This document shows positions 6,733 to 43,641 of a stretch of DNA of 64,000 nucleotides, in pieces; the stretch's first letter is position 1, and each line of letters starts with the position of its first letter. Below the pieces are notes generated by a model. The model did not search any database and had not been told where the DNA came from. It worked only from the letters and a program-made list of their open reading frames with translations. The DNA is from Escherichia phage vB_Ec-G1. The translations under genes were made by a program, and so were the position numbers. The stretch is taken from sequence record PQ433349.1, one strand, 5' to 3'.

Positions 6733-9700
6733 ATGGCAACATTCCCAACATATCCAGCAACGTCTCTCGAACAGGGCGTAGACCTGGTTATTTTCTCATC
6801 TAACCAACTCCATGATGTTATTAATGGAAGTGCTACAGAGAGTATTGAAACAGAATCAGGGTTGATACCAACCCTGAGAAAAGCCCTTGTTGACAACTTT
6901 TTCTTTAAAAGCCCATTGGATTGGGCGCAAGGCACAAACGAAACAGTTTTTAACCAACTTCGTTATTTCCAGAATGGAGTATTGAGCGGTTATTACTATG
7001 CCCCTAACGCTACATTGGTTAACCCAATCCCTATGCAAGGGACTCCAGTAGGAGATAACAACTGGGTATTGTGGGGACTGAAAACAGAACAATTAGCAAC
7101 AGAAGTCACCCCGTGGGTATACTCTGGTGCAACGGGTTATGAAACAGTAATTAGTCCTCCTTACATCTTTGATAGTGCTATTGTTACGATCAATGGTGTT
7201 ATTCAGGTTCTGGGGGAAGCTTTCCGTATAGAAGATAGTAAGATCATCCTATCTGAACCTTTGGGACACGATCCTGCAACAGGACTGCCAAACAAGCTTT
7301 TTGCTTACATTGGTAAAATCGTAGCTTCCGCAGATACAGATCCTAACCTAGAGAACCGTCTTGTCAGTTTAGAAACAAAAACGGAAGAACTAACAGAAAG
7401 CATGGATAAAGTCCCTCTGCAAACTATTGCTCGTAAATATGGTTTGTTAGATGATGAGGTGGCTTACGCAACAGCAGGTCAATCGTTAACAGGGATTAAA
7501 GCTCTGTATGATCCAGTAGCACAGTCTTCCTACACATTACCTCCTAACATCACAGGAACTTTAACATCCTTGTCTGTTTCTGGAGTAATGACTTATTCTG
7601 GGGGGTCTGTAGATCTTTCTGCACTAGCTGTTGAACGTGGACAGTTTGTTCATTTGCCTACAAGCTTTGGTAATAACGTAACTCTGACAGCTAAAAATCA
7701 GACGATTGGACGTGGTGCTGGTCGTTATCGTTGGGCTGGAAGTTTACCAAAAAGTATTTTGGCCTCCGATACATTGGAGACAAGTGGTGGATTAGGTCCA
7801 AATGCATGGGTTCTGACCAATACAGAAGGACTGTTAACCCCTCGTGGTGGAACATACAACGATTTATTCGATGTTGTCTACTTGTCAGAATTTGCTAACA
7901 ACACAACAACATATACCACACCAGAAGCAGCTTTCCAAGCGGCACTGTTAGCAGCAAAAGCTTCGAAAAGCAAGATTCTCGATGCTTACGGTTGCGATAT
8001 GACTTTCACGACAAGCTCTTTTGATATTCAAGGTATCACTTTGCGTGGGGGTGTGTTCCGTGGTCAACGCGACTATCGTGTGCAAAATGCTACAGTAGAA
8101 GGCACAACTTTCCGTAACTCTCGTGTTATGTATTGGGGTGGTGCTGTGCGCATGTTCGATTGTTTGTGGGACGGTGCTCCTCGCGCAGGTCAAGTTGGTA
8201 GCTTGGTATTCCAAGGCAACCCAATATCAGGTACTTTTGAAATTGATAATTGTACTTTTAAAAACGGGTTGTATGGCATCCTTCAACAAGGAACAGGGGA
8301 ACCAGTAACACGTGGTGTCTTCCGTAACCTTACCTTCATGGACATGCAAGGTGATGCAATAGAACTGAACGTCATCAATAAACATTATGACGATGGTTGT
8401 GTGATTGAGAATATTTACCTGTCTAATATCGATGGGACTAACGCTCCTATTCCTCTGTCCAACTGGGGTATCGGTATCGGTGTAGCTGGTAAAGGACCAT
8501 ATGGTTACGGAATCCCTGATGATCAATATTGCAAGAATATTACAATTCGTAACGTTTTTGCAAAACGTTGTCGTCAGATTGTCCACGTAGAAGTTGGTCG
8601 TAATATCTCTATCGAAAACATTCATGGCGATCCAGACCAGACCGTATCTGTTGGGACAGGTTTGGCAACTGGCGCAGTTGTAATGTACGGAAGTAAAGAT
8701 TTTACGATTGACGGTGTTTACGGAGAGCCTAAAACAGACGGTAGCACACTTGCAAGTAATATCCGTATGATTTATTTGGAGTGGGGAACTAACGCAGTTC
8801 TGGACGGAGAGGGTAATCCGGTAGTTCCGGCACAGGGTAGACCTTCAAACCCATGCTTTAACTATTCTGTTCGTAATATTCATACCAAAACTGGACGTGT
8901 TTTTGCGGGAGTTTCCGCTGGGCCAGGTTATGAAAACAGAGTTAGCTTTGAAAATATTCGTTGCGCTGCATTGCAGTTGTTCGGTATAGCTTCTTGGCTT
9001 TCAATGTCTAACATCACCTGTAATATCTTCGATTGTGTTGGTCAACCTGAATCTGGTCCAGGGACATTTTATGATGGATTCTTCCGTAGAGAAAAATCTG
9101 TTCTTGAAATGGTTAACGTAAACTGTTACCCAGATGGCAAGACGATGGTTACTGGTCGTCCACAGTGGAGCCGTTGCCGTTACTCGGATATTCATCGTGT
9201 CAACTGTAATGTTGAAGCTAATATGTATACCAATATCGCAGGTGGTATTGGAGCTATTGTAGGGACAACGGGCAAAGTTTATTACTTAGAGCCTAATCCT
9301 AGTCGAAACATTGATGGAATGCATTTCCCAACAGGGAAAGAGTTTGACAAAGGGGATATGATAGTCAAGGCGGATAATACGTTCTTCCTTGTAACAACAA
9401 GTGGGGCATATATTCCAGATATCCCAGCTTTCGGTATTCGAGCTACACAGGCAGGAGATACCTTCCTGACACAGAACTTGACTCCTAACGGGACAGCAAC
9501 AAATGCTTCTTGGTTGTATCATTACCCTCTGTCAGCAGGGACACGTATCCGTATTCCTGGTGCTGGCGTAGGTGGAGCAGATTTGGACACAGTTATTACT
9601 CGTGCACCTTATCAAGATAATGATACGTGGACTAACCCAGTTAAAATAGACATTGCAGATCCAATTGTAACGCCTACAAGTGCTGGAGTTAGAATTAAAA

Positions 9701-9786
9701 CCATACCTAATGATTCCAGTAATGTTTCTGTAGGTAATACTGCGGTTATTCGCCCAACGCCAGTAGTAGATGTGCCAACAACCTAA
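6733..9786 (+). CDS. tailspike protein with beta-helix domain
   Basis: 1017 aa; conserved N-terminal anchor region then repetitive beta-strand-rich region typical of polysaccharide-degrading spikes. Confidence 0.7.
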   Translation: MATFPTYPATSLEQGVDLVIFSSNQLHDVINGSATESIETESGLIPTLRKALVDNFFFKSPLDWAQGTNETVFNQLRYFQNGVLSGYYYAPNATLVNPIPMQGTPVGDNNWVLWGLKTEQLATEVTPWVYSGATGYETVISPPYIFDSAIVTINGVIQVLGEAFRIEDSKIILSEPLGHDPATGLPNKLFAYIGKIVASADTDPNLENRLVSLETKTEELTESMDKVPLQTIARKYGLLDDEVAYATAGQSLTGIKALYDPVAQSSYTLPPNITGTLTSLSVSGVMTYSGGSVDLSALAVERGQFVHLPTSFGNNVTLTAKNQTIGRGAGRYRWAGSLPKSILASDTLETSGGLGPNAWVLTNTEGLLTPRGGTYNDLFDVVYLSEFANNTTTYTTPEAAFQAALLAAKASKSKILDAYGCDMTFTTSSFDIQGITLRGGVFRGQRDYRVQNATVEGTTFRNSRVMYWGGAVRMFDCLWDGAPRAGQVGSLVFQGNPISGTFEIDNCTFKNGLYGILQQGTGEPVTRGVFRNLTFMDMQGDAIELNVINKHYDDGCVIENIYLSNIDGTNAPIPLSNWGIGIGVAGKGPYGYGIPDDQYCKNITIRNVFAKRCRQIVHVEVGRNISIENIHGDPDQTVSVGTGLATGAVVMYGSKDFTIDGVYGEPKTDGSTLASNIRMIYLEWGTNAVLDGEGNPVVPAQGRPSNPCFNYSVRNIHTKTGRVFAGVSAGPGYENRVSFENIRCAALQLFGIASWLSMSNITCNIFDCVGQPESGPGTFYDGFFRREKSVLEMVNVNCYPDGKTMVTGRPQWSRCRYSDIHRVNCNVEANMYTNIAGGIGAIVGTTGKVYYLEPNPSRNIDGMHFPTGKEFDKGDMIVKADNTFFLVTTSGAYIPDIPAFGIRATQAGDTFLTQNLTPNGTATNASWLYHYPLSAGTRIRIPGAGVGGADLDTVITRAPYQDNDTWTNPVKIDIADPIVTPTSAGVRIKTIPNDSSNVSVGNTAVIRPTPVVDVPTT

Positions 9787-9792
9787 TGGAAT

Positions 9793-9818
9793 AGAGGGGG
9801 AATTCCCCCTCTTCTTCC
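9793..9818 (+). terminator. intrinsic terminator
   Basis: agaggggg aatt ccccctct hairpin then T-rich run. Confidence 0.5.
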
Positions 9819-9848
9819 AATAGAATGGTCTAATGATAGGAGAGATAA

Positions 9849-11873
9849 ATGAATTTAACAAGACCTAATAGTGCGATAGCCGATCTGGTAGAAGCTACTT
9901 ATCGAAAACGTCGCAGCTTTGAGGCAGGTTTTACATTACGTAATTCCCGTGAAGTTTTGCTGTTAGCAGCAGAAGGGAATTATTACCAATGGAAAGGAAC
10001 TTTTCCTAAAGTAGTTCCAGCAAACTCTACGCCAGCCACCACAGGTGGTATTTCTTCCCTTGCATGGCAAAGTGTTGGGACCGCTGATGATATAGCAATT
10101 ATCAATGCCAAGTTTACGGCAATGCAGCAACAGATTGATGATCTGTCGGAAACAATACCTGAAGCTGGTAAATCGGCTTATCAGATCGCACTTGATAATG
10201 GTTTTGTTGGAACAGAAGCACAATGGCTTGCTTCTTTGAAAGGGGATACTGGTGCTCAACTTAATATTAAAGGATCATTAGCAAGCACTAGTGAACTACC
10301 ATCCACAGGTAACGTTGCAGGGGATGGTTATATCGTAGGTGATGTAATCTACGCTTGGGATGGTTCTGTTTGGAAACTTATTTCTTCTCTTGGGCCAGAA
10401 GGTAAATCAGCTTACGAGGTATGGTTGGCAGATGGTAATACAGGATCTGTTTATGATTTTCTTACCTCTATAAAAGGTGATAAAGGCGATGTTGGTCCTA
10501 CAGGGCCACAGGGAGCACCTGGTGTTAACGCCAACGGTTTTGATTATCGTGGGGATTTGCCTTCTACAAGTAACTTACCACAACCTAACTCTGAAAACGT
10601 AAGCCAAGCTTATTCTATCAATGGTAATCTTTATGTCTCTAATGGGACAGCTTGGGTCAACATGGGTAATATTGTTGGTCCTCAAGGTCCACAAGGTGAG
10701 GCAGGTAAAGACGGTCTAGATGGAACAGATGGGGATGAAGGGAAATCTGCATATCAAAGTTGGCTGGATGCTGGTAATGAAGGGACAGAAGTAGATTTTA
10801 TTGCCTCACTTAAAGGTCCAAAAGGAGACAAGGGTGATCAAGGAGAGCGAGGTCCACAAGGTGAACTAGGTCCACAAGGACCAGTGGGTGCAACAGGATC
10901 AGGCTTAGAGATTATCGGGGTTCTGAACAGTGAAGCTGAACTTCCTCCTACTGGAGAAGTAGGTGATGCATATAAAATTAATAATGATTTGTATGTTTGG
11001 GTTCAAGATGCTACGGAATGGATGAATGTTGGCAGTCTTGGAGGAACATCAATTACAGCTAAAGGTCATGTTCCGAACAGTGAAGCTCTCCCTGTTTATA
11101 ATAACTATGGTGATGCCTACTTAACTGAAGATACTAGTAATCTTTACATCTATACCTACGATCAAGACACCAATTCCGCATCTTTTGTTGACATGGGAAG
11201 TATTAAAGGCGACAAAGGTGAAAAAGGGGATAAAGGAGATAAGGGTGATCCTGGAACAAACGGAACCAACGGTACTAATGGGACCAACGGTAAGGACGGC
11301 GCACAGTGGTTTGTAGCAACAACTAATCCAGTCGCAGGTGATGGTGTTATCAATGATTACGCTTTCAATACTACCACTGGGGCAGTGTTTAAGAAAACAG
11401 ATTCTTCTACGTGGACACTTATAGGAACTCTTCCTAGTATACCAGAAGCCCCTCAAGATGGCTTGACGTATGGTCGTTCTGATGGAAACTGGATCGAAAT
11501 ATCAGGATCAGATCCTACGGAAGCTATAACACCAACTAGAGTTACAGCAGGTTTCATGGAACTTGAAACAACTACTGCCAACTCTGGAGCATCTTGGACT
11601 CCTTCTGGAACTTCCAATATGTATGTTGTTACAGTAACTGATGCTCTGACAGTTGGAGCATGGCCTGGTGTCACTGGCTCTACAAAACCTAAAGCGTTTT
11701 CAGCAATGATTTATTTGATTCAAGATACAACGGGACACACGGTTACACTAGATGCGTCTTATGGAGCACTAAATGATACAGAAATAGCAACTGCTGCTAA
11801 CGCAGTAACAATTTTGCAATTAACGTATCCTGGTGTGGGTGATATCGTGGACATGGTTGTTGTAACACGATAA
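9849..11873 (+). CDS. collagen-like tail fiber protein
   Basis: Several Gly-X-Y runs (GPQGPQGEAGKDGLDG, GDKGDQGERGPQGELGPQGPVG, GDKGEKGDKGDKGDPGTNGTNGTNGTNG). Confidence 0.75.
   Translation: MNLTRPNSAIADLVEATYRKRRSFEAGFTLRNSREVLLLAAEGNYYQWKGTFPKVVPANSTPATTGGISSLAWQSVGTADDIAIINAKFTAMQQQIDDLSETIPEAGKSAYQIALDNGFVGTEAQWLASLKGDTGAQLNIKGSLASTSELPSTGNVAGDGYIVGDVIYAWDGSVWKLISSLGPEGKSAYEVWLADGNTGSVYDFLTSIKGDKGDVGPTGPQGAPGVNANGFDYRGDLPSTSNLPQPNSENVSQAYSINGNLYVSNGTAWVNMGNIVGPQGPQGEAGKDGLDGTDGDEGKSAYQSWLDAGNEGTEVDFIASLKGPKGDKGDQGERGPQGELGPQGPVGATGSGLEIIGVLNSEAELPPTGEVGDAYKINNDLYVWVQDATEWMNVGSLGGTSITAKGHVPNSEALPVYNNYGDAYLTEDTSNLYIYTYDQDTNSASFVDMGSIKGDKGEKGDKGDKGDPGTNGTNGTNGTNGKDGAQWFVATTNPVAGDGVINDYAFNTTTGAVFKKTDSSTWTLIGTLPSIPEAPQDGLTYGRSDGNWIEISGSDPTEAITPTRVTAGFMELETTTANSGASWTPSGTSNMYVVTVTDALTVGAWPGVTGSTKPKAFSAMIYLIQDTTGHTVTLDASYGALNDTEIATAANAVTILQLTYPGVGDIVDMVVVTR
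11209..11297 (+). repeat. tandem 9-bp repeats encoding GDK/GTN collagen triplets
   Basis: gataaagga-type and ggaaccaac-type units repeated 3-4 times within the fiber gene. Confidence 0.6.
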
Positions 11874-23984: not shown

Positions 23985-24928
23985 TATAGCTCCTCAAATA
24001 AAAGTCTACGACGCTCATTCAACACATCAATGTGATAATGAGTCCTGACATACTTAGCTAATGCTAATCCTTTCTCCATGCAAACATCGGGAGCACTTAA
24101 TAAGTATTCCGTAATATCTTTCCACTCGGAAGGTGTTTCAGCAAAGAATAACAGATCTTTAAACTCTTGTGTATGATAATTCTCACGAGGAGAACAGATC
24201 AAAGGTAAACCCTTAGCACCTGCCTCAAGAATTTTAAGATTGCTTTTTGCATTATTAAACACGTTATCAATCAATGGCGCAAGACTGATTTGATGACCAT
24301 CGTAAGATTCCATGTAGTTGGCATATGGTCTTACACCTTCATAAACACAAGTTGGTGCTACATTTTCCCTGATTACAGACCATTCACGACTACTTAAAAC
24401 TTCAGAATCCCTACGAAAACCACATATTGTAAGATCTTTACCAAAATCGGGCAAGATAGCCAAATCTTGTTTATGTGTTTCACTTCCAGCCCAGACTAAT
24501 GGAGTTTTGGAGTAGCGATCACGGGTCAACACAAATTGACCTTCATCGTAAGGAAGTCCATTAGGGATTATGTGCACATTATCATTGTATTGTGAAAGTT
24601 CAACTTGCAAGGCAGGTGTCGTAGTTGTAACAAGGTCACTGTGCTCTAAAAACCATTTTAAATGTTCACGAATACCTGATTCAAAAATACCTTCTAACAT
24701 GTGTCCTTTTGGAATAACTAAAGAGTCATCCAAATCCATAACCATTTTAAAGCCTAGGTTTTTAAGGGCTAAAAAGCCCTCTTTACCTTTTGTTGGCACC
24801 CCGTTAAAAACGAAAACGTTGTGTTTAGGTTGTGAAGAGAACTGCCTTGAGTAAGGCAGCACTACCCTATGGAAATCGCAGACACTATAATTGATTCCGT
24901 TACGATTGTCAAGAATTATTTGTCCCAT
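23984..24928 (-). CDS. glycosyltransferase (GT-B-like), paralog 1
   Basis: C-terminal KILEAGAKGLPLI resembles GT1/GT4 EAMAxGxPVI motif; paralogous to next gene. Confidence 0.5.
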   Translation of the reverse strand: MGQIILDNRNGINYSVCDFHRVVLPYSRQFSSQPKHNVFVFNGVPTKGKEGFLALKNLGFKMVMDLDDSLVIPKGHMLEGIFESGIREHLKWFLEHSDLVTTTTPALQVELSQYNDNVHIIPNGLPYDEGQFVLTRDRYSKTPLVWAGSETHKQDLAILPDFGKDLTICGFRRDSEVLSSREWSVIRENVAPTCVYEGVRPYANYMESYDGHQISLAPLIDNVFNNAKSNLKILEAGAKGLPLICSPRENYHTQEFKDLLFFAETPSEWKDITEYLLSAPDVCMEKGLALAKYVRTHYHIDVLNERRRLLFEEL

Positions 24929-24935
24929 ACATCAC

Positions 24936-29338: not shown

Positions 29339-29567
29339 TTCTTCCTCCTAATGTTATCTCCGGTTTGTATATACGAAGAATTATAGCGTTTTCATTTTCT
29401 TTGTCAACCCATTCTTCATAATCAGGCCATACATGAATCTCTACTCTACTTACAATATCTTCCATTCGCACAGTCCCAATGAAATACTCTTTGAGACTGC
29501 GCATAATGAAAGCTTCTCTCTCACGCCAATAATTTTCTATGACTTGAGAGGCAAGCTCGTCGATCAT
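29319..29567 (-). CDS. hypothetical protein
   Basis: Track ORF 82 aa. Confidence 0.4.
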   Translation of the reverse strand: MIDELASQVIENYWREREAFIMRSLKEYFIGTVRMEDIVSRVEIHVWPDYEEWVDKENENAIILRIYKPEITLGGRSVKLRN

Positions 29568-30358
29568 TTTTTAGCACCTACTTTAACAACCCACTCTCCG
29601 AACTCTTCAGATAAGAGTTTGTCATAAAGCTCTGAATCTGTCAAGTCTAAATCTTTAATACCAATAAAACCAACATTATCATAAGCATTTGCCAGTTCTT
29701 TCAGGAAGCCAAACTTCTCATTACCAACGCCAACCATGAACCAATAAATAGGTTTATTCTTATTCTCTTCGATAAGACGACGAACAGCACTAGGATCACC
29801 ATTCTCACCATCCGTCTGGAAGAATACAACACCAGGGGTAACGTCAGCACCTGGTTCAGATACAGCTACAACTTTTTCACGCTCTACAGACACTGTTTCA
29901 GTTTTACCAAGCAGACGATTAAAGAAGCCTTTCTTTGGAGCCTCCTCTTGTACCACTTGTTTAGTGGTAATATATTTAGTAACAGTGCCAAAATACTCAT
30001 CGTAGATATCCGCCATTACAGGGGCGTAATTTGTTCCACCTCCGATACGAACATTACGCATACATTTACCAACATAGTCATCGTAAACATCTGCTGTTGC
30101 TGGAGTAAGCTCTTGGGAACTCGTATTGAAGGCCCACATATCAATTTGTTGATTATCGTCGAACAGCATACCAAAAGGAAGCAGTTTACCTACAAAATCA
30201 CTCACTACCCCACTAGAATATAGACCATGCATACTACCAGAAATATCTAGAGCACATGCTACACGAAGAACAATCTTACCTTCATTCAGGTTCTTATTCT
30301 TTTTCAGAGAGAAAGCAAGGTTTTCTTGACGTTTTTTCAGGCTGATTTTCTCGGACAT
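29564..30358 (-). CDS. vWA-domain protein (TerY-like)
   Basis: MIDAS motif DISGSM, GGGTN, TDGENGD; TerD-like KISLKK N-terminus. Confidence 0.7.
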   Translation of the reverse strand: MSEKISLKKRQENLAFSLKKNKNLNEGKIVLRVACALDISGSMHGLYSSGVVSDFVGKLLPFGMLFDDNQQIDMWAFNTSSQELTPATADVYDDYVGKCMRNVRIGGGTNYAPVMADIYDEYFGTVTKYITTKQVVQEEAPKKGFFNRLLGKTETVSVEREKVVAVSEPGADVTPGVVFFQTDGENGDPSAVRRLIEENKNKPIYWFMVGVGNEKFGFLKELANAYDNVGFIGIKDLDLTDSELYDKLLSEEFGEWVVKVGAKK

Positions 30359-31758: not shown

Positions 31759-31955
31759 TACTCCTCCTCCTCATTGAAGTCAATATCTGCAAGGAGTTCG
31801 AATTTACGGAAGTTACGACAACCTTCATAAATATAACAATCACGACAAACTGCTAGAACACTTGGGGGATATATGCCTCCCATCGGTGCGAATCGTTTTT
31901 CGTCATCATAACGGACACCAATGTCTTCATCAATTATATAGATACGGATTCTCAT
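31758..31955 (-). CDS. small Cys-rich protein
   Basis: Track ORF 65 aa; CRDCYIYEGC; acidic C-terminus. Confidence 0.4.
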   Translation of the reverse strand: MRIRIYIIDEDIGVRYDDEKRFAPMGGIYPPSVLAVCRDCYIYEGCRNFRKFELLADIDFNEEEE

Positions 31956-33064
31956 TTACCAAGCCCTCGTTTCACAGCAGCTACCATCCCGTCTTCCAGA
32001 GATTGAACTTCATTAATATAATCAACACGAGCAGCACGGGCTTCCGTATTGATGCGGTTAGTTTCTTCCAACATCTTAACCAAGTTTTCCTGATCGTGAC
32101 GCAGAGTTTCAATATCCAACACTTGACGGTTAGCCAGTGCTGCTGCTTCGATCTGATTCTGTGTAGCAAGATCGCTACCCAGTTTAATTGCCAGGTTAAA
32201 TTCATCAAGAACGTTATTCTGCGTCTCTGCTGCTTTCATTTGACGTAAGCTCTCGATATACATTGAGAAGTTAGCAGAGTAAGCAGGAATAACATTATTT
32301 ACTATGTTACGCGCAGATCGCATTAAGCTTGCAGAAACTTTTTGCATACCTTGTACACGCGGTCCCATTTGGACACACAGTAGGCGCAATGCTTTTAAAT
32401 CTGCAATACGAATCTCCAGAAGATCCAAAGTATCTCGGATCACTTGTCGCTGTTCTACTGCATCTTCTGGAAGAGCAGCCAAAGCTTGTTCTTCTTTTTC
32501 ATAGGTTGCTGTTAGAAGCTGCATATCTCGGTTCAAACTTGCAGCATATTGTCCAATAGCTTGATGTAGCTTTTCAAGATATACCAAGGAATCTTCTTCT
32601 TTGCGAATATCCATTTGAAGGTTCTTTACCAACTCTTCAATACGGTTATTAACATTATCAAACTCCCCAAACAGGTCTTCTTTCATACCCATAACTTTTT
32701 TAATGAGTTTAGTAATACCCTTGCTTTGTTTAATAGAGTTTGGATCAAGTTGTTTTGCCTGTTTAATCAAAGCTGTGAGTCGTTCACTCATCTGATCGCC
32801 TTGATTACTACGTTGATGTTTTAATACCTCGGCATTCAAGGAACGCAAGGTTGTTCCTGCCTCTGCCCCAATCTCTTCGATCTCTTGTCGGGTCATAGAA
32901 GGCAAAACTGGAACTTCTTGCGGTGCCGCTGGTGCATAAACAGGACTGGCATCTAACACGCTTGGAGCGAATACAGATTTACTTGCATCTGTTGTTGCAG
33001 CAAATACGCTCATTTCAGGCTTCTTCTGACCACCAGTAACTGCTTTTAAAAATGGACTTGTCAT
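31952..33064 (-). CDS. telA: TelA-like toxic-anion-resistance protein
   Basis: 370 aa, mostly helical/coiled; size and Ter context consistent with TelA/KlaA family (from memory). Confidence 0.55.
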   Translation of the reverse strand: MTSPFLKAVTGGQKKPEMSVFAATTDASKSVFAPSVLDASPVYAPAAPQEVPVLPSMTRQEIEEIGAEAGTTLRSLNAEVLKHQRSNQGDQMSERLTALIKQAKQLDPNSIKQSKGITKLIKKVMGMKEDLFGEFDNVNNRIEELVKNLQMDIRKEEDSLVYLEKLHQAIGQYAASLNRDMQLLTATYEKEEQALAALPEDAVEQRQVIRDTLDLLEIRIADLKALRLLCVQMGPRVQGMQKVSASLMRSARNIVNNVIPAYSANFSMYIESLRQMKAAETQNNVLDEFNLAIKLGSDLATQNQIEAAALANRQVLDIETLRHDQENLVKMLEETNRINTEARAARVDYINEVQSLEDGMVAAVKRGLGK

Positions 33065-34883: not shown

Positions 34884-35234
34884 TCATTTTAAAAATACCT
34901 CATCATCAGTTTCATTATCCCAGAAGAACAAATCCCAACCATTCGGATCATTCCATTTGGCTGCTGGAGAAGTCCATATTTGTTCGATATCAATATTCAA
35001 AACTTCACCGTTTCGTTTTGAAACAGCTTTAGTTAATTCCCAACGAGATACAGGCTCTACTTCCCCTGAACCACTCCCACAACAAGCTACCACGTTAGGA
35101 GGCAAATTAATTGGATCTTTGGTCACGATCATAACGCTTACCCCAGGGTAAACTTTTGAAAGATAATCTAAAACGTAATCCACATCACCAGATAAATCCC
35201 AAACAAGTTCTTGAATTTCATCAAAATTATTCAT
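34884..35234 (-). CDS. hypothetical protein
   Basis: Track ORF 116 aa. Confidence 0.45.
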   Translation of the reverse strand: MNNFDEIQELVWDLSGDVDYVLDYLSKVYPGVSVMIVTKDPINLPPNVVACCGSGSGEVEPVSRWELTKAVSKRNGEVLNIDIEQIWTSPAAKWNDPNGWDLFFWDNETDDEVFLK

Positions 35235-35243
35235 AAGTCTCTC

Positions 35244-35270
35244 CTATAAAATAGCCTCCCGAAGGAGGCT
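35244..35270 (-). terminator. intrinsic terminator after terC
   Basis: agcctcc cgaa ggaggct hairpin then T-rich run on minus strand. Confidence 0.5.
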
Positions 35271-35276
35271 CATCTA

Positions 35277-36251
35277 TTAAACAGCAGCTTCTTCTTTTTC
35301 AGGGAAGATAAAGCTTGCAATAACACCAAGAGCTAATGTGCCTAGAACAATCATCAGACTTACGTTAGGGGAAATATCATGCGGGAGGAATGACCACTTG
35401 GCATGAAGTGTTTCACCGAACGGGTGATACATAAGTTTAGCACCGACAAATACCAGAACCACAGCAACAGCTTTCTCTAAGTGAACCAGATATTTCACAG
35501 CCACACTTAACACAAAGAAAAGTGCACGTAAACCAAGAACAGCCATCAGCATTGCAGAATAAACTAGCAGAGGTTCTTGTGTCACACCGATCACAGCCGG
35601 AACTGAATCAAAAGAGAAGACAATATCTGTAAGCTCAATAACAAACACACAAAGAAGAGCAGGAGTTGCATATTTAATACCATTCTTAATGGTGATGAAC
35701 TTTTCACCATCCAGTGCATTGTGCACAGGCAGAACTTTACCTACTAAACGAACAGCCCAATGCTTAGAGTAATCAATATCCTCTTCTTCGTCACCACCTT
35801 TGATGATAGCCACGGCAGACCAAGCTACAATCAAACCGAACAACACTTGGACCGACCAATGAAGGTTAAACAAAGCGGTCCCTGCTGCAACAAAAATACC
35901 TCGGAAGACAATGGCTCCTGCAATCCCCCAAAGTAAAATCTTATGTTGGAGATGTGTGCTCTTAATTCCAAAGCTTGCAAAAATTGCCATGAACACCATC
36001 AGGTTATCTACAGAAAGACTCTTTTCCAACACATAGCCACTTAGGAAAAGCGCGGCAAACTCTTTACCATGTTCTACCCAAATGAATGCGTAATATCCTA
36101 AAGCTAAAGCAATCCAAAAAACAGACCAAAGCAAAGCAGATTTAATTCCAATTTCTTTATTCTCTTTATGACCAAAGAAATCAATACCAATAGACAATGC
36201 TAAAATACCAACTAAAACAACTACATCAATAATGGGGAAACCAAGTTGCAT
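35277..36251 (-). CDS. terC: TerC-family integral membrane protein
   Basis: Multiple TM helices; signature EKSLSVDN and ELTDIVFSFDSVPAV. Confidence 0.85.
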   Translation of the reverse strand: MQLGFPIIDVVVLVGILALSIGIDFFGHKENKEIGIKSALLWSVFWIALALGYYAFIWVEHGKEFAALFLSGYVLEKSLSVDNLMVFMAIFASFGIKSTHLQHKILLWGIAGAIVFRGIFVAAGTALFNLHWSVQVLFGLIVAWSAVAIIKGGDEEEDIDYSKHWAVRLVGKVLPVHNALDGEKFITIKNGIKYATPALLCVFVIELTDIVFSFDSVPAVIGVTQEPLLVYSAMLMAVLGLRALFFVLSVAVKYLVHLEKAVAVVLVFVGAKLMYHPFGETLHAKWSFLPHDISPNVSLMIVLGTLALGVIASFIFPEKEEAAV

Positions 36252-36332
36252 TATTTTCTCCTTTCTCTTTGCGGGGAACCACTCCCCGCCTCATGTGATA
36301 CATCTTACTCTATTCTAAAACTTTGTCAACAC

Positions 36333-36554
36333 TTATTTTGAAGAACTTGAGGAAAAGATCCCACGTAGTACAGCCATGATAAATGCCACACACACCACAG
36401 TCCAGAAGGTGACAGGAACAGTGATATCTGTGTGACCCATCATTTCAACAACGTAGTTATAAGCCAGCAGCAGAAGCCATGCTGGAATCATACTAATCAG
36501 AAAAGCAATAACAAACACAATAATCACTGCAAGAATACCTGCTAAAACGCCCAT
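36333..36554 (-). CDS. small membrane protein
   Basis: 73 aa, two predicted TM helices. Confidence 0.5.
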   Translation of the reverse strand: MGVLAGILAVIIVFVIAFLISMIPAWLLLLAYNYVVEMMGHTDITVPVTFWTVVCVAFIMAVLRGIFSSSSSK

Positions 36555-36567
36555 AATATTTCTCCTC

Positions 36568-37044
36568 TTAAAGTTTATAAATAGTCACATCGTGACCTGT
36601 TTTTACTAAAGTTTCTTCAATCATCACTTCAATGATAGCCCAATTACCTCCTGCCAACCCTGCTCCAATCATAGGTAAGCCGATCTTACATTTTTGGTCA
36701 CGGAGAAGCAAATCATTAGCCATAGCTATTAGTGCATCGTACAAGGCATCATAGTCCAACTGACGACCTTTAGCATTGTATCCGTAACGGTATTGCCCGT
36801 ACAGATTATATACCAAAGGGTCTGATTGTTCGTCTGGCACCCCTAAACTAAAACAACCCAGTTTACTTTGATCACCAGCCATTGTGTCTAAGTCTGCTGC
36901 ATATGCGTAAGGAAATGCTCGTTTGATTTGTGGGGCAATACCTGCCCCCATATTACACATACAGTTGCAACAATGAGCAATAACAGTTACTTCACCTGCT
37001 TTAGCGGCATCAATAAGATTACCTGTTTTCATTTTAAGCATTTT
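36568..37044 (-). CDS. macro-domain protein (ADP-ribose binding/hydrolase)
   Basis: VIAHCCNCMCNMGAGIA and IGLPMIGAGLAGG resemble macro-domain motifs; start at internal Met of track ORF. Confidence 0.55.
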   Translation of the reverse strand, partial: KMLKMKTGNLIDAAKAGEVTVIAHCCNCMCNMGAGIAPQIKRAFPYAYAADLDTMAGDQSKLGCFSLGVPDEQSDPLVYNLYGQYRYGYNAKGRQLDYDALYDALIAMANDLLLRDQKCKIGLPMIGAGLAGGNWAIIEVMIEETLVKTGHDVTIYKL

Positions 37045-37054
37045 TAGCCCCTTA

Positions 37055-37882
37055 TTACAGAATGTGCTGTTTTGTGTAACGATCCAAGAATTCAAAGTTT
37101 TCAGCATACTTTGAAATTCGGTTGTAACCTTCTCCCAAGCATCCAAAGAAAAGTTGCTCTACATAGTAGTGTGGCAATTGACTAAGAATGATTTTGAAGT
37201 CTTCATGATTTTGGCCCATAAGATATTTAATAGGACGAACAAGACACTGTGCATCACGTTCTTCATTAATCATTTTAACAAACGCTTCTGGTGTATTAAT
37301 GTAGTTAAAATTCAGTTTAGCTTCGGTATCTGCTTGATTACCTTCATATTTTGCAAAATACAGGAAGTAAACATCATTTTTAACTTGATTTTCATCAAGA
37401 ATCTCAATCAGTTTGTCTTCATGCGTTCCAGTGATATTTACATCATCAATGAATACAAGCTTCTTATCACCCCAGAATTCTTTGTTGCAGTAGAATGTAT
37501 CCCCATCAATAAGTTTCTTACGACTAGCTTTATCCAAGAAACCATAATCGTTGATATAGCTAACTTTACGATGAATAATGTCCAGTTCTGCTGAACGACC
37601 TTGATCATATTGTGATTGCAACATGTTAAAGTAATTAATAAAATGATCTGTCATCATTGTTGCAGCATTATGCACATGGTTGTAAGGAGAAGGAATGATA
37701 ACAAATTGTTCCCCAATATGTTTCATTGCCACTTGAGCAAAAAACTGAAGTGCCAATTCTTTACCCATACGACGCGCGGCTTGGTTACTACCAAATTTCA
37801 ATTTTGAATAATCTTGGATATCAAAAGTAGCAGTTTCCAGGTCATCAAATTTATTTGCAAAAATTTGAGTTTGATTACGCAT
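37055..37882 (-). CDS. phosphoribosyltransferase (PRTase) domain protein
   Basis: PRPP-binding motif KKLVFIDDVNITGTHEDK. Confidence 0.65.
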   Translation of the reverse strand: MRNQTQIFANKFDDLETATFDIQDYSKLKFGSNQAARRMGKELALQFFAQVAMKHIGEQFVIIPSPYNHVHNAATMMTDHFINYFNMLQSQYDQGRSAELDIIHRKVSYINDYGFLDKASRKKLIDGDTFYCNKEFWGDKKLVFIDDVNITGTHEDKLIEILDENQVKNDVYFLYFAKYEGNQADTEAKLNFNYINTPEAFVKMINEERDAQCLVRPIKYLMGQNHEDFKIILSQLPHYYVEQLFFGCLGEGYNRISKYAENFEFLDRYTKQHIL

Positions 37883-38531
37883 TTACAATTTCTCCTCTTT
37901 TAAGTTTCTCTAGTAAGTCGTTAGGGTTCTTAATATGACAGAAGTTAAATCCTAAGTCAACACATTTTCCATCATATTCTTCACTATCGCCTACGTGCAA
38001 TACTTCGTGCCCTAACAGAGGGATCGGAGAATACGTGAGCGTGCGAGCAAAGAATCGCGGATCTGGTTTACAAAGTAAAGCTTCATCCGAGAAATGGGTG
38101 AACTCAAAACAATTCCAACTATCAAACTTACAAGCACGACGCAGGATATCCCCTGATATAAAGTTGGTATTGCTCTTAATACTCAAATCATAACGTCCCG
38201 AAAGATACAGCAAGTACATCGGCAGATCCACGGCTACGTGTGGTGGAAACTTAAGGAACCACTGTTCACACTCGAAACGAAGCTTTGCAGACTTCCAAGG
38301 TGTTATCCCAAGTTCAGAACCAAGTCTTTCCCAGGCGTATGCTGCACACTCGGCTTTGCCTTGAAGTGCTGCATTATCCAGTTCCTTTTTGATCTTCTTA
38401 TAAGCTGCTCTTGCTTCCACTTCCGTAATATCTCCATATTTTGCGATAGTCCAGGCTCGCATGTCTGCGTAATTGGAGTTTGCTGTGATCAGTGTGTTCC
38501 ATACATCAAAAGAGATATGTTTAATAGTCAT
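37875..38531 (-). CDS. HAD-superfamily hydrolase
   Basis: Motif I FDVWNTL, KPDPRFF, motif IV HVGDSEEYD. Confidence 0.6.
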   Translation of the reverse strand: MTIKHISFDVWNTLITANSNYADMRAWTIAKYGDITEVEARAAYKKIKKELDNAALQGKAECAAYAWERLGSELGITPWKSAKLRFECEQWFLKFPPHVAVDLPMYLLYLSGRYDLSIKSNTNFISGDILRRACKFDSWNCFEFTHFSDEALLCKPDPRFFARTLTYSPIPLLGHEVLHVGDSEEYDGKCVDLGFNFCHIKNPNDLLEKLKRGEIVNA

Positions 38532-38532
38532 A

Positions 38533-39138
38533 TTAAGCCCACCATGCGTCTAAGTTAAGATTACTGTCCACTACCACTTGTTCTATGTGGTAGCCTTTTA
38601 TCTGTATCCCACTGTTCAAGAGCATATCATACGCTTCATTGAAACGCAACTTATCTTCTGCGGAATATAAGCGAGCATTATAAAATCGGTAATCAATTTC
38701 TTCAGCATTAGAAGAAATACGGAAGAAGTTTGTTTCTACTTCGGGATCACTTGCTGAAGTCTTAATGTGAACTTCTCCATAATTTTCTTTACTTAGATCC
38801 ATGAAAAGAACACAGGCAACATGTTTAAACATTCGTTCCAGTTTGTAACGAACAACATTGAAACCTGCATTCTCAAGTTTTTCTACACACTGCAACATTA
38901 AAGTAGTGTCGAGATCGCTTTGATACTTTGTTAACATACGATCACGTTGAGACTTTGTATCCCGATGTAAATCAATTGTTGTGCATTTGGCACCAATAAT
39001 CTTAGCTGCTTTCATCAACTCTTCAGAACTAACGTTAGATAAAGTAAGATGAAAATGGGCTTTCCACACTTTTTTAGCAGGGACACCAAAAGATTTATCC
39101 CCACTATTCGGCATGTTGACTACTACACTATGTTGCAT
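38533..39138 (-). CDS. hypothetical protein
   Basis: Track ORF 201 aa. Confidence 0.45.
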   Translation of the reverse strand: MQHSVVVNMPNSGDKSFGVPAKKVWKAHFHLTLSNVSSEELMKAAKIIGAKCTTIDLHRDTKSQRDRMLTKYQSDLDTTLMLQCVEKLENAGFNVVRYKLERMFKHVACVLFMDLSKENYGEVHIKTSASDPEVETNFFRISSNAEEIDYRFYNARLYSAEDKLRFNEAYDMLLNSGIQIKGYHIEQVVVDSNLNLDAWWA

Positions 39139-39153
39139 TACTTATCTCCTCAC

Positions 39154-39378
39154 TTAAAATGGAAGTCTTTGAAGTTCATCTCCTCCGATATCAAGTAATT
39201 TAGCAACATCTCGATCAGAAAGCAACTCTTTTCTTTGTAAAATATCCACAAGGGTTGCAAGAATGTCCTTAACGTCCCGATCACTGTTCTTCAAAAGTTC
39301 TCCTGCCGTCCCTACTCTATCTCCTACAGCAAAATATGTAACCATGAAACCTCCTAAGTTAATCTGATTGCCAACCAC
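39154..39378 (-). CDS. hypothetical protein
   Basis: Track ORF 74 aa downstream of nrdG. Confidence 0.35.
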   Translation of the reverse strand: MVGNQINLGGFMVTYFAVGDRVGTAGELLKNSDRDVKDILATLVDILQRKELLSDRDVAKLLDIGGDELQRLPF

Positions 39379-41743: not shown

Positions 41744-43090
41744 TCATTTGGAGAGGAATTGTCTTCCCATGATCTTACCGTTCTTCACAGCGGTCCCATC
41801 GTGTCCATTGTAATCCCAGGTTCCATCGATATTACGCAAGAAGCTATCACGAACAGTATAGGCTTTACCGTTCTCTACTTTACTTTCTTCCACAATGATT
41901 GCCATAACAAGCTTATTTTCAATTTCGGTAGTAACCGATTCTTTGATACCCTCTGTAACTTCACGATCATATTGGATATAAACTCGCTCCTCGGTTACTT
42001 GCACGTCTACCACATTTTTAAATGTATAGGTCTGTTGTGTAGTGTAGAGGACACGAACGACACTCTTCTTACCTACTGGCGGCTTCTGACGACGCTTGCG
42101 GTAACGTGGAGACGGGTTAAGTTTAATATAACCTACAATATCTGATCCATCTCCAGAGTGGCTCCAATACAACGTCTCTGCCAACAAACCTTTTCCTTGG
42201 TCCCCATTTCGAAAAAGAACATTAACAGGACCATCACAAGGGCGTCTACCTCCGATGTGGGCTTGGTATTTTGCTGTTCTTGGGAGAACAAAATATTCTT
42301 CAATCTGCCATTCACTATCGTATTTCTCCCATTCAAAGTGGTTGGCTTTACATACTTCTAAAACACCATTTTTGTAACGGACTTGAACAAAGTCTTCACA
42401 AGGTTGAATACCTGTATTAGGAATATAGGTAGGCTCTGTGTCTTCTGGTTCAAAAGTCTCTTTTTGTTGTTCCACATCTTCCACTTTTCTTACATGCTTA
42501 GTATAAAACATATCTTTAAACTCCTGTGCTTCAACCTCAACTGCAAATTCATGTTCTCTGACAACCGGAGGCACAAGGCTTCCACACTCAAGATGTAGAG
42601 CATCCAGACCTGCCATTTTATCGTAAAAGATAACTTTTCGATACTTCTTACCGTCTTCTGGAATAGCAGGGTCTACTCGTTTAAGACGGGAAGCATCGCT
42701 TTTAGTCCAAAAACTCTTCCCTGTTGTATTATTGAAAGTAGTAATCATTTCTTCAATTTCTTCTTCGGAAAGGTTACTAGTGTCTGTGTAAACATCTTCA
42801 ATTTTTAGCATTTTAGTTTTCTTAAGAATTAAATCTAGCATTGCATCTCCTGTAAAACGCAGTTCATTATCTCCTACTGTCGGATCTCCAGTAAATTCAT
42901 TGGTCCCGACTGTGTGACAGATGTATGGAAAATTTGTGCAACCGTGTAAAAGAGCATATTTTCCTGTAAGTTTAGGATCTGTCTCTTTGGTCCAACCATA
43001 TGCAATCTCAATAGCTTTGCAAAGCCTGTCGAACAAGCCCCGATTGTTTGCCGCTGTTACCAAATCTTGCTTATGTGCATATACATTCAT
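41744..43090 (-). CDS. hypothetical protein
   Basis: Track ORF 448 aa; no motif recognised by eye. Confidence 0.5.
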   Translation of the reverse strand: MNVYAHKQDLVTAANNRGLFDRLCKAIEIAYGWTKETDPKLTGKYALLHGCTNFPYICHTVGTNEFTGDPTVGDNELRFTGDAMLDLILKKTKMLKIEDVYTDTSNLSEEEIEEMITTFNNTTGKSFWTKSDASRLKRVDPAIPEDGKKYRKVIFYDKMAGLDALHLECGSLVPPVVREHEFAVEVEAQEFKDMFYTKHVRKVEDVEQQKETFEPEDTEPTYIPNTGIQPCEDFVQVRYKNGVLEVCKANHFEWEKYDSEWQIEEYFVLPRTAKYQAHIGGRRPCDGPVNVLFRNGDQGKGLLAETLYWSHSGDGSDIVGYIKLNPSPRYRKRRQKPPVGKKSVVRVLYTTQQTYTFKNVVDVQVTEERVYIQYDREVTEGIKESVTTEIENKLVMAIIVEESKVENGKAYTVRDSFLRNIDGTWDYNGHDGTAVKNGKIMGRQFLSK

Positions 43091-43641
43091 AATAATCCTC
43101 CTCGTTTTATTGCAATAGATGCCCTAGGCTCTGCGATACCAGTGGCGTATAAATACGGATGACCTTGTGGAGAAGTTCTCATCCCAAACGAACCTAATTC
43201 TAACCCATACGTATCTTCCACGTCAAGACCAATATCTGTCTCTATGATTTGAGTTTGAACTTTGTAATACGTCCAAAAGAAATAGCGCATAGTTTCGGCA
43301 TACTCTTTGATGGACGCTCCTGGATAAAACTCAATAATTTCCAACTTCAAGAAAATGTTAAAATGAACATCATCTAACTCTTCCTCTGTTCGGTAGCAAG
43401 GTGTTAGAGCCATATAAGGATGATCTGTTGAAAATTCAAAACCATCTTTCTCCATCTGGAGGAAAGACTGCTCTGCACTGGCTACGTAGAACTTACCATT
43501 AGGATGCCCCAAGGGGCGATCCTCTTTACCTTCTGGTAATGTATATGCAAGGATATCCGCATCTACAAGATAAGGGACTTCCAACATCTCCGCAAATCGT
43601 CCGTAGTAATCAATAGCTTGAGCAATAACAGCTACGTTCAT
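43087..43641 (-). CDS. hypothetical protein
   Basis: Track ORF 184 aa. Confidence 0.5.
   Translation of the reverse strand: MNVAVIAQAIDYYGRFAEMLEVPYLVDADILAYTLPEGKEDRPLGHPNGKFYVASAEQSFLQMEKDGFEFSTDHPYMALTPCYRTEEELDDVHFNIFLKLEIIEFYPGASIKEYAETMRYFFWTYYKVQTQIIETDIGLDVEDTYGLELGSFGMRTSPQGHPYLYATGIAEPRASIAIKRGGLL

Follow-up and report, generated by a model that had tools for sequence, protein, structure and literature searches.

The macrodomain beside a HAD-PRTase_3 cassette in a phAPEC8-like coliphage is a probable stand-alone counter-defence enzyme

In the Ter-like block of Escherichia phage vB_Ec-G1 (PQ433349.1), a macrodomain gene directly follows genes for a HAD hydrolase and a phosphoribosyltransferase (PRTase). 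Do the three genes form one metabolic unit, or does the macrodomain have a function of its own? The original prediction had proposed a small ribose-phosphate or ADP-ribose unit, in which the macrodomain either reverses ADP-ribosylation by host defences or processes a product of the PRTase. We analyzed a 64,000-nt stretch of the phage DNA (the window), which is phAPEC8-like (Phapecoctavirus, 99.3% identity), and confirmed all three genes on the minus strand where they had been placed (Table 1); the span originally assigned to the unit, 36568-37882, comprises the macrodomain and PRTase genes alone, with the HAD gene outside it. Our direct evidence covers the fold, family and conserved site residues of the macrodomain, as well as gene order, distribution and mosaicism.

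Table 1. Features of the macrodomain locus and the neighbouring Ter-like block in the window.
Feature	Position	Strand	Remark
vWA-TerF	29564-30358		Ter-like block
TelA	31952-33064		Ter-like block
Intrinsic terminator-like hairpin after TerC	35253..35270	-	
TerC-family membrane protein	35277..36251	-	PF03741, E 3e-40
Mosaic (recombination) patch	36260..36920		C-terminal three quarters of macrodomain, membrane gene, promoter region
Sigma-70-like promoter, TTGACA-16-TAAGAT	36302..36329	-	Between membrane gene and TerC
Membrane protein, 73 aa, two-helix (phrog_16065)	36333..36554	-	Most constant downstream neighbour of macrodomain
Macrodomain CDS, 157 aa, phAPEC8 gp050 homologue	36568..37041	-	TARG1/ALC1-like class, Gln subtype, PHROG 335
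RBS AAGGGG	37048..37053	-	6 nt 5' of macrodomain ATG; read from sequence
PRTase_3, ComF-like type I phosphoribosyltransferase	37055..37882	-	PRPP loop KKLVFIDDVNITGT; PF15610, E 2.2e-41
HAD-IA hydrolase	37875..38531	-	Motif I D9-V-W11-N-T13; overlaps PRTase by 8 nt
201-aa protein, phAPEC8 gp047 homologue	38533..39138	-	First gene of tight gp047-HAD-PRTase-macrodomain run

The product of 36568-37041 is a genuine, intact macrodomain. It scored 23.5 bits with Pfam Macro (PF01661), above the gathering score of 22 (E 5.6e-5; 112 of 118 profile positions), and it matched phrog_335 far more strongly (E 1.5e-55) and the PADLOC DarG profile with E 3e-10. The AlphaFold2 model (pLDDT 94.5, pTM 0.90) predicts that the 157-aa protein adopts the three-layer alpha/beta/alpha macro fold, and Foldseek aligned this model to TARG1, BT1257, DarG (TaqDarG), Poa1p and SCO6735 with TM-scores of 0.73-0.82 and a probability of 1.00. 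Structure prediction and comparison, which had been suggested as a check, thus bore out the domain call, as did the intact active-site signature described below. The true start is the ATG at 37041-37039, 13 nt past the PRTase stop codon, and annotated homologues begin at the equivalent position. A longer mechanical ORF from TTG 37146, which would overlap the PRTase gene, was rejected as the macrodomain start.

The best PDB sequence match of the macrodomain was SCO6735 of Streptomyces coelicolor (E 8e-14), whose His24, Asn27, Gln85 and Gly126/128 align with H23, N26, Q83 and G126/G128. Mutation of Gln85, Asn27 or Gly128 abolishes or strongly reduces SCO6735 activity (PMC9411070). Among 51 homologues, down to 49% identity, H23, N26, Q83, G126 and G132 were invariant and G128 was conserved in at least 90%. 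Two glycine-rich ADP-ribose/phosphate loops are present, M31-G32-A33-G34-I35-A36 and I125-G126-A127-G128-L129-A130-G131-G132, in which G34, A36, G126 and G132 were invariant and G32 and G128 at least 90% conserved. The search for catalytic residues of known macro hydrolases, by which the original prediction was to stand or fall, gave a divided answer. In the HMMER alignment, the catalytic Lys of TARG1 (K84) and DarG (K80) is replaced by Gln83, which is invariant in the family, and the Asp125 of the TARG1 Lys/Asp dyad by Ala130 (GCGLDRLQW in TARG1, GAGLAGGNW here); the Gln-type signature of SCO6735 and Adpp, on the other hand, is present and invariant. By sequence, the phage protein carries the SCO6735/BT1257-type (Gln) signature of the ALC1-like class, and we place it in the Gln-type subfamily of the TARG1/ALC1-like class together with SCO6735, BT1257, phage Adpp and T4 Tk.4 (PHROG 335). 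It is not a DarG2 protein: the 157 residues comprise the macrodomain only and lack the C-terminal DarT-binding domain, the adjacent genes encode the PRTase and the membrane protein rather than DarT, and the score with the NCBIfam DarG model, 34.7 bits, stayed far below the cut-off of 250.

The closest characterised relatives are Gary Adpp, T4 Tk.4/AdfM and SCO6735. Gary Adpp (KNV71_gp137, identical to GRLPWR gp179) is 41% identical to the macrodomain over 157 aa (109 bits) and is the ADPR-1''-phosphate phosphatase of NARP1-AP (bioRxiv 10.64898/2026.01.28.702374). Both proteins belong to PHROG 335, carry the motifs H-x-C-N-C, N-x-Y-G-Q and G-x-G-L-A-G-G, and have a long loop after the invariant Gln. 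However, the Adpp gene is flanked by Adps and Namat, and Adpp counters aRES only together with both, whereas the window macrodomain is preceded by HAD and type I PRTase_3 genes. Homologues of Adps and Namat were not found by tblastn in phAPEC8 1-90 kb and the window, and none is annotated. Feeding NARP1 in the manner of Adpp can therefore not be the role of the macrodomain here, which in this respect resembles the NARP1-less T4 case. T4 Tk.4 (37% identity over 124 aa) is AdfM, which is needed against DarTG2 (bioRxiv 10.1101/2025.11.20.689424), and shares with the window protein the PHROG, the Gln-type signature and its occurrence as a stand-alone gene in a NARP1-free phage. It differs in lacking the 5-residue loop extension after the Gln, in its genomic context (the tk region) and in its place in a neighbour-joining tree (a rough one, with no support values), where it branches off outside the radiation to which the window protein belongs. 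SCO6735 (PDB 5E3B), a thymidine-ADP-ribose DNA hydrolase, has equivalents of the conserved site residues and a long mobile loop of similar length, but is encoded on a bacterial chromosome and associated with the response to DNA damage; its Val25 is Cys in the window protein, and identity in the structural alignment is ∼28%.

Fold and class are further shared with PhiKZ gp104 AdfM and the DarG2 antitoxin macrodomain (PDB 5M3E, 5M3I), both of which have been proposed to undo DNA ADP-ribosylation by DarT2. DarG (K80) and gp104 (K78) are, however, of the Lys type, and gp104 matches M. tuberculosis DarG with E 9e-25, compared with 5e-6 to 0.014 for the window protein against DarG entries. Within the Gln-type family, neither discriminating-column nor charge analyses yielded a sequence feature dividing phosphatase from DNA glycohydrolase specificity. 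The top columns in a comparison of NARP1-linked macrodomains with the rest were dominated by one large clade and none was discriminating; the residue after the His was C, Q or G in both groups; and net charge and pI, used as a proxy for DNA binding, gave no consistent signal (net charge of the window protein, -2). For the phage family to which the macrodomain belongs, the ability to overcome NAD-based defences of bacteria has already been demonstrated.

On the minus strand, the genes for HAD, PRTase_3, the macrodomain, the 73-aa membrane protein and TerC are tightly packed and followed by a terminator-like hairpin, which is likely the end of the transcription unit. No convincing terminator was found between these five genes, and the macrodomain is probably co-transcribed with HAD and PRTase_3. 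The phAPEC8 record annotates a promoter at the same place as ours, between the membrane gene and TerC. The membrane gene lies 3' of the macrodomain not only in the complete loci of Stephanstirmvirinae type but also in three that lack PRTase_3.

Upstream of the macrodomain, the HAD and PRTase_3 genes belong together. Of 45 PRTase_3 loci from phages and bacteria, all but one (44) had the HAD gene 5' of PRTase_3; HAD is its obligate upstream partner in a near-universal two-gene cassette. The HAD protein stayed below the Pfam Hydrolase cut-off (21.2 vs 26.4 bits); its identity is given by PHROG 14393 (E 3e-117) and by HAD motifs conserved across nine aligned homologues. PADLOC, NCBIfam and PDB searches with the PRTase and the HAD added nothing to family membership, the only PDB profile matches of PRTase_3 being weak ones to HGPRTs (E 0.13). 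A Ter-associated biosynthetic module consisting of a PRTase and a HAD has been described (Anantharaman, Iyer and Aravind 2012, as summarised in PMC7824862). It corresponds to the window genes at 37055-38531, beside TerC, TelA and vWA-TerF, and the same layout occurs in other phages and in bacteria. Elsewhere this module comes without a macrodomain, whose presence is specific to Stephanstirmvirinae. We regard HAD-PRTase_3 as a Ter-associated module in its own right, whose predicted product, made from PRPP and a base, is nucleoside-like.

The distribution of the genes sets the macrodomain apart from this cassette. In phage records, homologues of the macrodomain numbered 2991 and those of the PRTase 156, a ∼20-fold wider spread (for TelA in viral contigs, a single-protein scan gave only close relatives, and TelA was counted by tblastn across the phage collection instead). 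The macrodomain adjoined HAD-PRTase_3 in 7 of the 45 loci, all of Stephanstirmvirinae type; one further PRTase_3 locus, on a jumbo-phage contig, had a macrodomain ∼6 kb away, and the remaining 37, including all 20 of bacterial type, had no macrodomain of this family within 10 kb. Association with PRTase_3 and HAD thus did not recur across independent lineages. Even where the trio occurs, extra DNA separates PRTase and macrodomain in two loci (L038 and L039), and in one related contig the macrodomain lies ∼10 kb away at the opposite end of the Ter block. Among the 80 closest viral macrodomain loci, 5 had PRTase_3, 28 had NARP1 genes, 6 had Rnl2 and 41 had none of these, and in the neighbour-joining tree (again rough and without support values) the Stephanstirmvirinae macrodomains fell within a radiation holding several NARP1-linked clades.

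Recombination points the same way. Compared with phage vB_EcoM_01, the patch listed in Table 1 showed 49-92% nucleotide identity per 60-nt window, while its flanks were 93-100% identical; the macrodomain and membrane genes have been swapped between genomes that are 97-99% identical in HAD and PRTase. Recombination thus exchanges these two genes independently of HAD and PRTase. The proposed three-gene metabolic unit does not survive these observations: HAD and PRTase_3 form a pair in 44 of 45 loci, which the macrodomain joins only in loci of Stephanstirmvirinae type and from which recombination separates it. Likewise, processing of the PRTase product by the macrodomain found no support in gene counts this uneven and in a patch that spares HAD and PRTase.

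The reading we favour, with moderate confidence, is that the macrodomain is a stand-alone, swappable counter-defence ADP-ribose enzyme which lies beside PRTase and HAD but outside their pathway; its substrate and target defence are inferred. By analogy with its relatives and from its site residues, the 157-aa protein would bind the ADP-ribose moiety, hydrolyse the 1''-carbon bond of the distal ribose and so counter host defences in which NAD+ is the weapon. Its most likely task would be to remove ADP-ribose from DarT2-modified thymidines in phage DNA, like T4 AdfM and SCO6735, and very probably it would also turn ADPR-1''-phosphate into ADPR in vitro, like Adpp. It would be co-transcribed with HAD-PRTase_3, yet be no component of the cassette. 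On these analogies, the reversal of host-imposed ADP-ribosylation that had been suggested for the macrodomain is a realistic role. Several observations count against a stand-alone gene. The order HAD-PRTase_3-macrodomain is kept across two genera in which the PRTases are ∼65% and the macrodomains ∼49% identical, spacing is tight or overlapping, and no convincing terminator intervenes. Furthermore, Adpp, the closest characterised relative, acts in a pathway with PRPP-type enzymes, and it is T4 Tk.4, not the Stephanstirmvirinae macrodomains, that falls outside the radiation with NARP1-linked clades. Our analysis sets the macrodomain apart from the Ter-type cassette. It also gives a gene that carries no annotation beyond 'phosphatase' or 'hypothetical' in ∼130 therapeutic-candidate Stephanstirmvirinae coliphages a concrete putative anti-defence role, predicted from sequence and relatives to be anti-DarT2, possibly with additional ADPR-1''P phosphatase activity. 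PHROG 335 emerges as one phage macrodomain family with two experimentally described counter-defence activities, and annotations within it should therefore be transferred with care.

An unlikely alternative is that the macrodomain performs housekeeping, cleaning up after the phage's own NAD-consuming reactions (ADPR-1''-phosphate, Appr>p-derived RNA-repair products, or O-acetyl-ADPR or ADP-ribosyl adducts made by Sir2). Such roles have been proposed for phage macrodomains in published comparative analyses (PMC7824862, PMC9503650), and the structural neighbours include TARG1, deposited as an O-acetyl-ADP-ribose deacetylase, and Poa1p, the tRNA-splicing ADPR-1''P phosphatase. Close relatives in Vequintavirinae-like phages do adjoin RNA ligase 2 (the 6 Rnl2 loci among the 80), but tblastn found no Rnl2 homologue in phAPEC8 1-90 kb and the window; phAPEC8 does encode Sir2, but ∼100 kb away. 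Moreover, mosaic macrodomain alleles in otherwise near-identical genomes better fit an arms-race gene, and the two family members from phages that have been studied by experiment both serve counter-defence. Replacement of the canonical TARG1/DarG Lys and TARG1 Asp by Q83 and A130 could also suggest a non-catalytic ADP-ribose binder that would soak up ADPR-derived immune signals or, in imitation of an antitoxin, bind DarT and thereby block it, and SCO6735 indeed also inhibits DarT through interaction (PMC9411070). Yet Gln is the functional residue of this subfamily: Q85A and Q85E both abolish SCO6735 activity (PMC9411070), and the Gln-type Adpp is an active phosphatase. The five site residues that are invariant over 51 sequences (H23, N26, Q83, G126 and G132) are likewise what would be expected of an enzyme, and we consider a pure binder extremely improbable.

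It also seems distinctly unlikely that HAD, PRTase_3 and macrodomain act in a single pathway that is analogous, though not orthologous, to NARP1-AP. In such a pathway the macrodomain would convert ADPR-1''-phosphate or a host-NADase ADPR adduct to ADPR, and the ribose-phosphate or nicotinamide side would fall to PRTase_3 and HAD, rebuilding NAD+ or making an NAD/ADPR-derived nucleoside. The frequency of HAD-PRTase_3 loci without a macrodomain within 10 kb (37 of 45, with all 20 bacterial-type loci among them), the insertions and the displaced macrodomain described above, and a recombination boundary that splits the trio between PRTase and macrodomain all argue against it. In addition, the type I ComF-like PRTase_3 has no detectable similarity to the Nampt-type Namat, and a HAD resembling 5'-nucleotidases would reverse NMN synthesis instead of aiding it. 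What speaks for a shared pathway, besides tight linkage and probable co-transcription, is position. At least five clades have related macrodomains inside Adps-(macrodomain)-Namat operons, and Otagovirus has the order Adps-Namat-macrodomain followed by TelA-vWA-TerC-TerD. In the NARP1-less Stephanstirmvirinae, for which tblastn of phAPEC8 1-90 kb and the window gave neither Adps nor Namat, HAD-PRTase_3 takes that slot upstream of the macrodomain and of TerC, TelA and vWA-TerF. From this positional hint comes the very doubtful reading that HAD-PRTase_3 is a non-orthologous replacement of Adps-Namat and, with an Adpp-like macrodomain, would constitute a third kind of phage pathway recycling ADPR-derived products of NAD+ breakdown. 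If this were true, the 'nucleoside-like metabolite' of Ter systems would be an NAD/ADPR-related compound, which would tie these systems to NAD+ metabolism and offer a handle on a question dating from 2012. Also in keeping with a single pathway, Rhizobium phages have a gene annotated as NMN adenylyltransferase/Nudix two genes away from the pair.

The region around the macrodomain gene matched phAPEC8 (Stephanstirmvirinae, Phapecoctavirus) with 99.3% identity over a 4.2-kb query (35000-39200). The minus strand carries every gene of the region, in a transcription order that starts with NrdD, NrdG and a small ORF and continues as tabulated below, with SprT-like, TelA and vWA-TerF genes farther downstream of TerC. 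The HAD hydrolase and PRTase_3 genes overlap by 8 nt, and spacers of 13 nt lie both between PRTase_3 and the macrodomain gene and between the latter and a membrane gene. All three genes of the original prediction are really present (macrodomain by Pfam, PHROG and structural model; PRTase by PF15610; HAD by PHROGs and motifs), as is the PRPP loop it had named. Given its own promoter-like site and the hairpin that follows it, TerC may also be transcribed alone.

Features of the macrodomain region, in transcription order
Feature	Coordinates	Strand	Remarks
201-aa protein, function not assigned	38533-39138	-	phAPEC8 gp047 homologue
HAD hydrolase	37875-38531	-	weak in Pfam, clear in PHROGs, motifs conserved
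PRTase_3	37055-37882	-	PF15610, E = 2e-41; PRPP loop present
Macrodomain	36568-37041	-	157 aa
73-aa two-helix membrane protein	36333-36554	-	phrog_16065, PHROG without assigned function
Sigma-70-like promoter	36329-36302	-	TTGACA-16-TAAGAT, ahead of TerC
TerC	35277-36251	-	
Strong terminator-like hairpin	35270-35253	-	AGCCTCCTTCGGGAGGCT + T-rich tail, after TerC

The macrodomain gene is a real feature and belongs to a known, recently characterised family. A 192-aa ORF beginning at TTG 37146 in a mechanical ORF list was dropped in favour of ATG 37041, which lies 6 nt past AAGGGG and agrees with the starts of annotated homologues. The resulting product barely exceeded the Pfam Macro cut-off (23.5 bits versus 22), matched PHROG 335 'phosphatase' (E = 1.5e-55) and was matched in part by DarG models. 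Its AlphaFold2 model, built with 51 homologues as input, reached a mean pLDDT of 94.5, and its Foldseek neighbours were TARG1, BT1257, T. aquaticus DarG, Poa1p and SCO6735 (TM 0.73-0.82). By sequence, the top match among solved structures was SCO6735 (5E3B; E = 8e-14), followed by BT1257, TARG1, DarG and Poa1p. Gln83 of the phage protein aligned opposite the catalytic Lys84 of TARG1, and Ala130 opposite Asp125, so it cannot use the Lys-based mechanism by which TARG1 and DarG work. Gln83 instead corresponds to Gln85 of SCO6735, whose mutation abolishes the removal of ADP-ribose from DarT-modified thymidine by that enzyme; mutation of Asn27 nearly does so (PMC9411070). The SCO6735-equivalent positions His23, Asn26, Gln83, Gly126 and Gly128 are kept. 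Across the 51 homologues (down to 49% identity), His23, Asn26, Gln83, Gly126 and Gly132 were invariant and Gly128 was at least 90% conserved, a pattern that points to an enzyme rather than a mere binding module. As to the catalytic residues of known macro hydrolases, the prediction thus fared differently by class: the equivalents of Lys84 and Asp125 are missing, and the Gln-type residues of SCO6735 are kept.

Four lines of evidence (distribution, two neighbourhood surveys and mosaicism) contradict the proposal that macrodomain, PRTase and HAD form a small ribose-phosphate or ADP-ribose metabolic unit. A tblastn search of phage records gave a count of 2991 for the macrodomain and 156 for the PRTase. 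We surveyed 45 PRTase_3 loci from published phages, IMG/VR contigs, metagenome contigs and a bacterial genome collection (21 loci, among them one where this phage had been misbinned). HAD lay directly upstream at 44 of them, and a macrodomain followed PRTase_3 only in the 7 Stephanstirmvirinae-type loci. One jumbo-phage contig carried a macrodomain 6 kb away; the remaining 37 loci, including Rhizobium, Ensifer and Bacteroidales genomes, had none within 10 kb. Among close relatives, two contigs held additional DNA between PRTase and macrodomain, and a 153-kb contig had the macrodomain at the far end of the Ter block. Conversely, the 80 closest viral-contig relatives of the macrodomain (40-92% identity) had, within 6 kb, Adps and/or Namat (28), RNA ligase 2 (6), PRTase_3 (5) or none of these (41). 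The misbinned locus (L016; JAEZZU010000022.1, 'MAG: Proteobacteria bacterium') is a 13-kb contig with a PRTase 100% identical to ours and the same NrdD-NrdG-gp047-HAD-PRTase-macrodomain run, and is thus phage DNA placed in a bacterial genome bin.

Compared with Phapecoctavirus vB_EcoM_01, NrdG, gp047, HAD, PRTase and TerC were 97-100% identical in nucleotide sequence, but 36260-36920 only 49-92% per 60-nt window. This stretch is a recombination patch that takes in all but the N-terminal quarter of the macrodomain, as well as the membrane gene and the promoter region. An IMG/VR relative presented the reverse case (membrane gene 98.6% and macrodomain 85% identical against a background of 70-75%). 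The unit moved by recombination is the macrodomain with the small membrane protein. The 73-aa gene was the macrodomain's most constant neighbour, following it in complete Stephanstirmvirinae-type loci, and three contigs (L064, L067, L068) had the pair but no PRTase_3 within 6 kb. The membrane protein may be its real partner.

HAD-PRTase_3 is the pair associated with Ter genes, for which synthesis of a nucleoside-like metabolite has been proposed; jumbo 'and certain other related smaller' phages were already known to carry it (PMC7824862). Several unrelated phage contigs carried it with TelA, vWA-TerF, TerC or TerD; in Dysgonomonas it adjoins a PP2C phosphatase, a protein kinase and a SUKH-domain protein, and the two genes form a stand-alone cassette in Ensifer. 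Elsewhere the cassette needs nothing that a macrodomain would supply. HAD motif I (D9-V-W11-N-T13) has Trp in place of the usual second Asp of HAD phosphatases, a substitution kept in phage and bacterial partners (Leu or Tyr in 2 of 9 homologues), so the step of the Ter cassette that is assumed to be a 'phosphatase' reaction may be non-standard. In two contigs laid out like Xanthomonas phage XaC1 (L012, 198 kb; L013, 18.7 kb; region 7345-11168), a DUF2828/DUF7788 protein and a weak 2H-SAK phosphoesterase match come after HAD-PRTase_3, with genes for RNA ligase, CCA-adding enzyme and Nudix proteins close by, an RNA-repair-like setting without Ter genes.

PHROG 335 also takes in the characterised phage relatives. 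PhiKZ gp104 'AdfM', which strips DarT2 marks off DNA (PMC13309987), is a genuine DarG2-like, Lys-type protein (E = 9e-25 to M. tuberculosis DarG), and is therefore only a distant cousin of the Gln-type window protein. T4 Tk.4, also called AdfM and the sole T4 gene required on DarTG2 hosts (bioRxiv 10.1101/2025.11.20.689424), is Gln-type and 37% identical over 124 residues, but does not have the 5-residue lengthening of the loop after Gln. That longer loop is shared by Adpp of Vibrio phage Gary (41% full-length identity; identical in sequence to GRLPWR gp179). Encoded between Adps and Namat, Adpp converts ADPR-1''-phosphate to ADPR, letting NARP1 rebuild NAD+ once the RES-domain defence aRES has attacked (bioRxiv 10.64898/2026.01.28.702374). 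A rough neighbour-joining tree, drawn without support values, placed the Stephanstirmvirinae macrodomains within a radiation holding at least five NARP1-linked clades, with T4 and Felix O1-type proteins outside it. The macrodomain protein of Escherichia phage JohannJBalmer (Bas62, Justusliebigvirus; L003 5833-6567) has 244 aa, with an N-terminal extension of ~85 residues absent from ours, and is encoded by a gene that shares 26 nt with the PRTase gene.

Feeding NARP1 in the manner of Adpp cannot be the role in this phage: a search of phAPEC8 1-90 kb and the window gave no homologue of Adps, Namat, NMNAT or Rnl2, and dephosphorylating ADPR-1''P alone leaves NAD+ unrestored. The NARP1-less T4 homologue protecting against DarTG2, together with the strong similarity to SCO6735, suggests that the macrodomain would strip ADP-ribose from molecules that host ADP-ribosyltransferases have modified, phage DNA or possibly some other macromolecule. 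It probably also acts as an ADPR-1''P phosphatase in vitro, and sequence analysis did not separate the two specificities. We consider it rather likely that the protein is an independent catalytic counter-defence enzyme; if so, opposing DarT2 in vivo would be a real possibility, somewhat short of an even chance. The anti-defence half of the earlier interpretation is reasonable; the metabolic-unit half is not supported. phAPEC8 (L010) also encodes a Sir2-family protein (24129-24929, beyond the window), and a pairing in trans via O-acetyl-ADPR or reversible ADP-ribosylation is conceivable.

PRPP-type enzymes nevertheless repeatedly adjoin related macrodomains. Pseudomonas phage phiPsa300 (Otagovirus; L141, 1-10400) encodes Adps, two ORFs, Namat, a small ORF and a PHROG-335 macrodomain, without HAD-PRTase_3. 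TelA, a vWA protein, TerC and TerD follow this NARP1-AP-like run after 2.6 kb (likewise L070 and L095), and thus Ter-like and NAD-salvage genes are neighbours in a second phage lineage. HAD-PRTase_3 of our phage fills the Adps-Namat slot, which could be a coincidence of accessory genes accumulating in the region; that it hints at a Ter cassette touching NAD/ADPR chemistry seems improbable.

The PHROG names phrog_15930 'ribonucleotide reductase' (41744-43090, minus strand) and phrog_4806 'histidyl tRNA synthetase' (43087-43641, minus strand) look doubtful: NCBIfam supported neither, and Pfam, run on 43087-43641 only, found nothing. The gp047 homologue belongs to a narrow family (34 clusters) and had no match in Pfam or PDB sequences. 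Its model (pLDDT 81.5) resembles tandem ferredoxin-like domains, H28, H30, T32, E122, H124 and K126 are invariant, and two PADLOC HMMs labelled AbiEi matched it (E = 5e-13). In L058, 3 kb separate a gp047 homologue from the macrodomain downstream of it.
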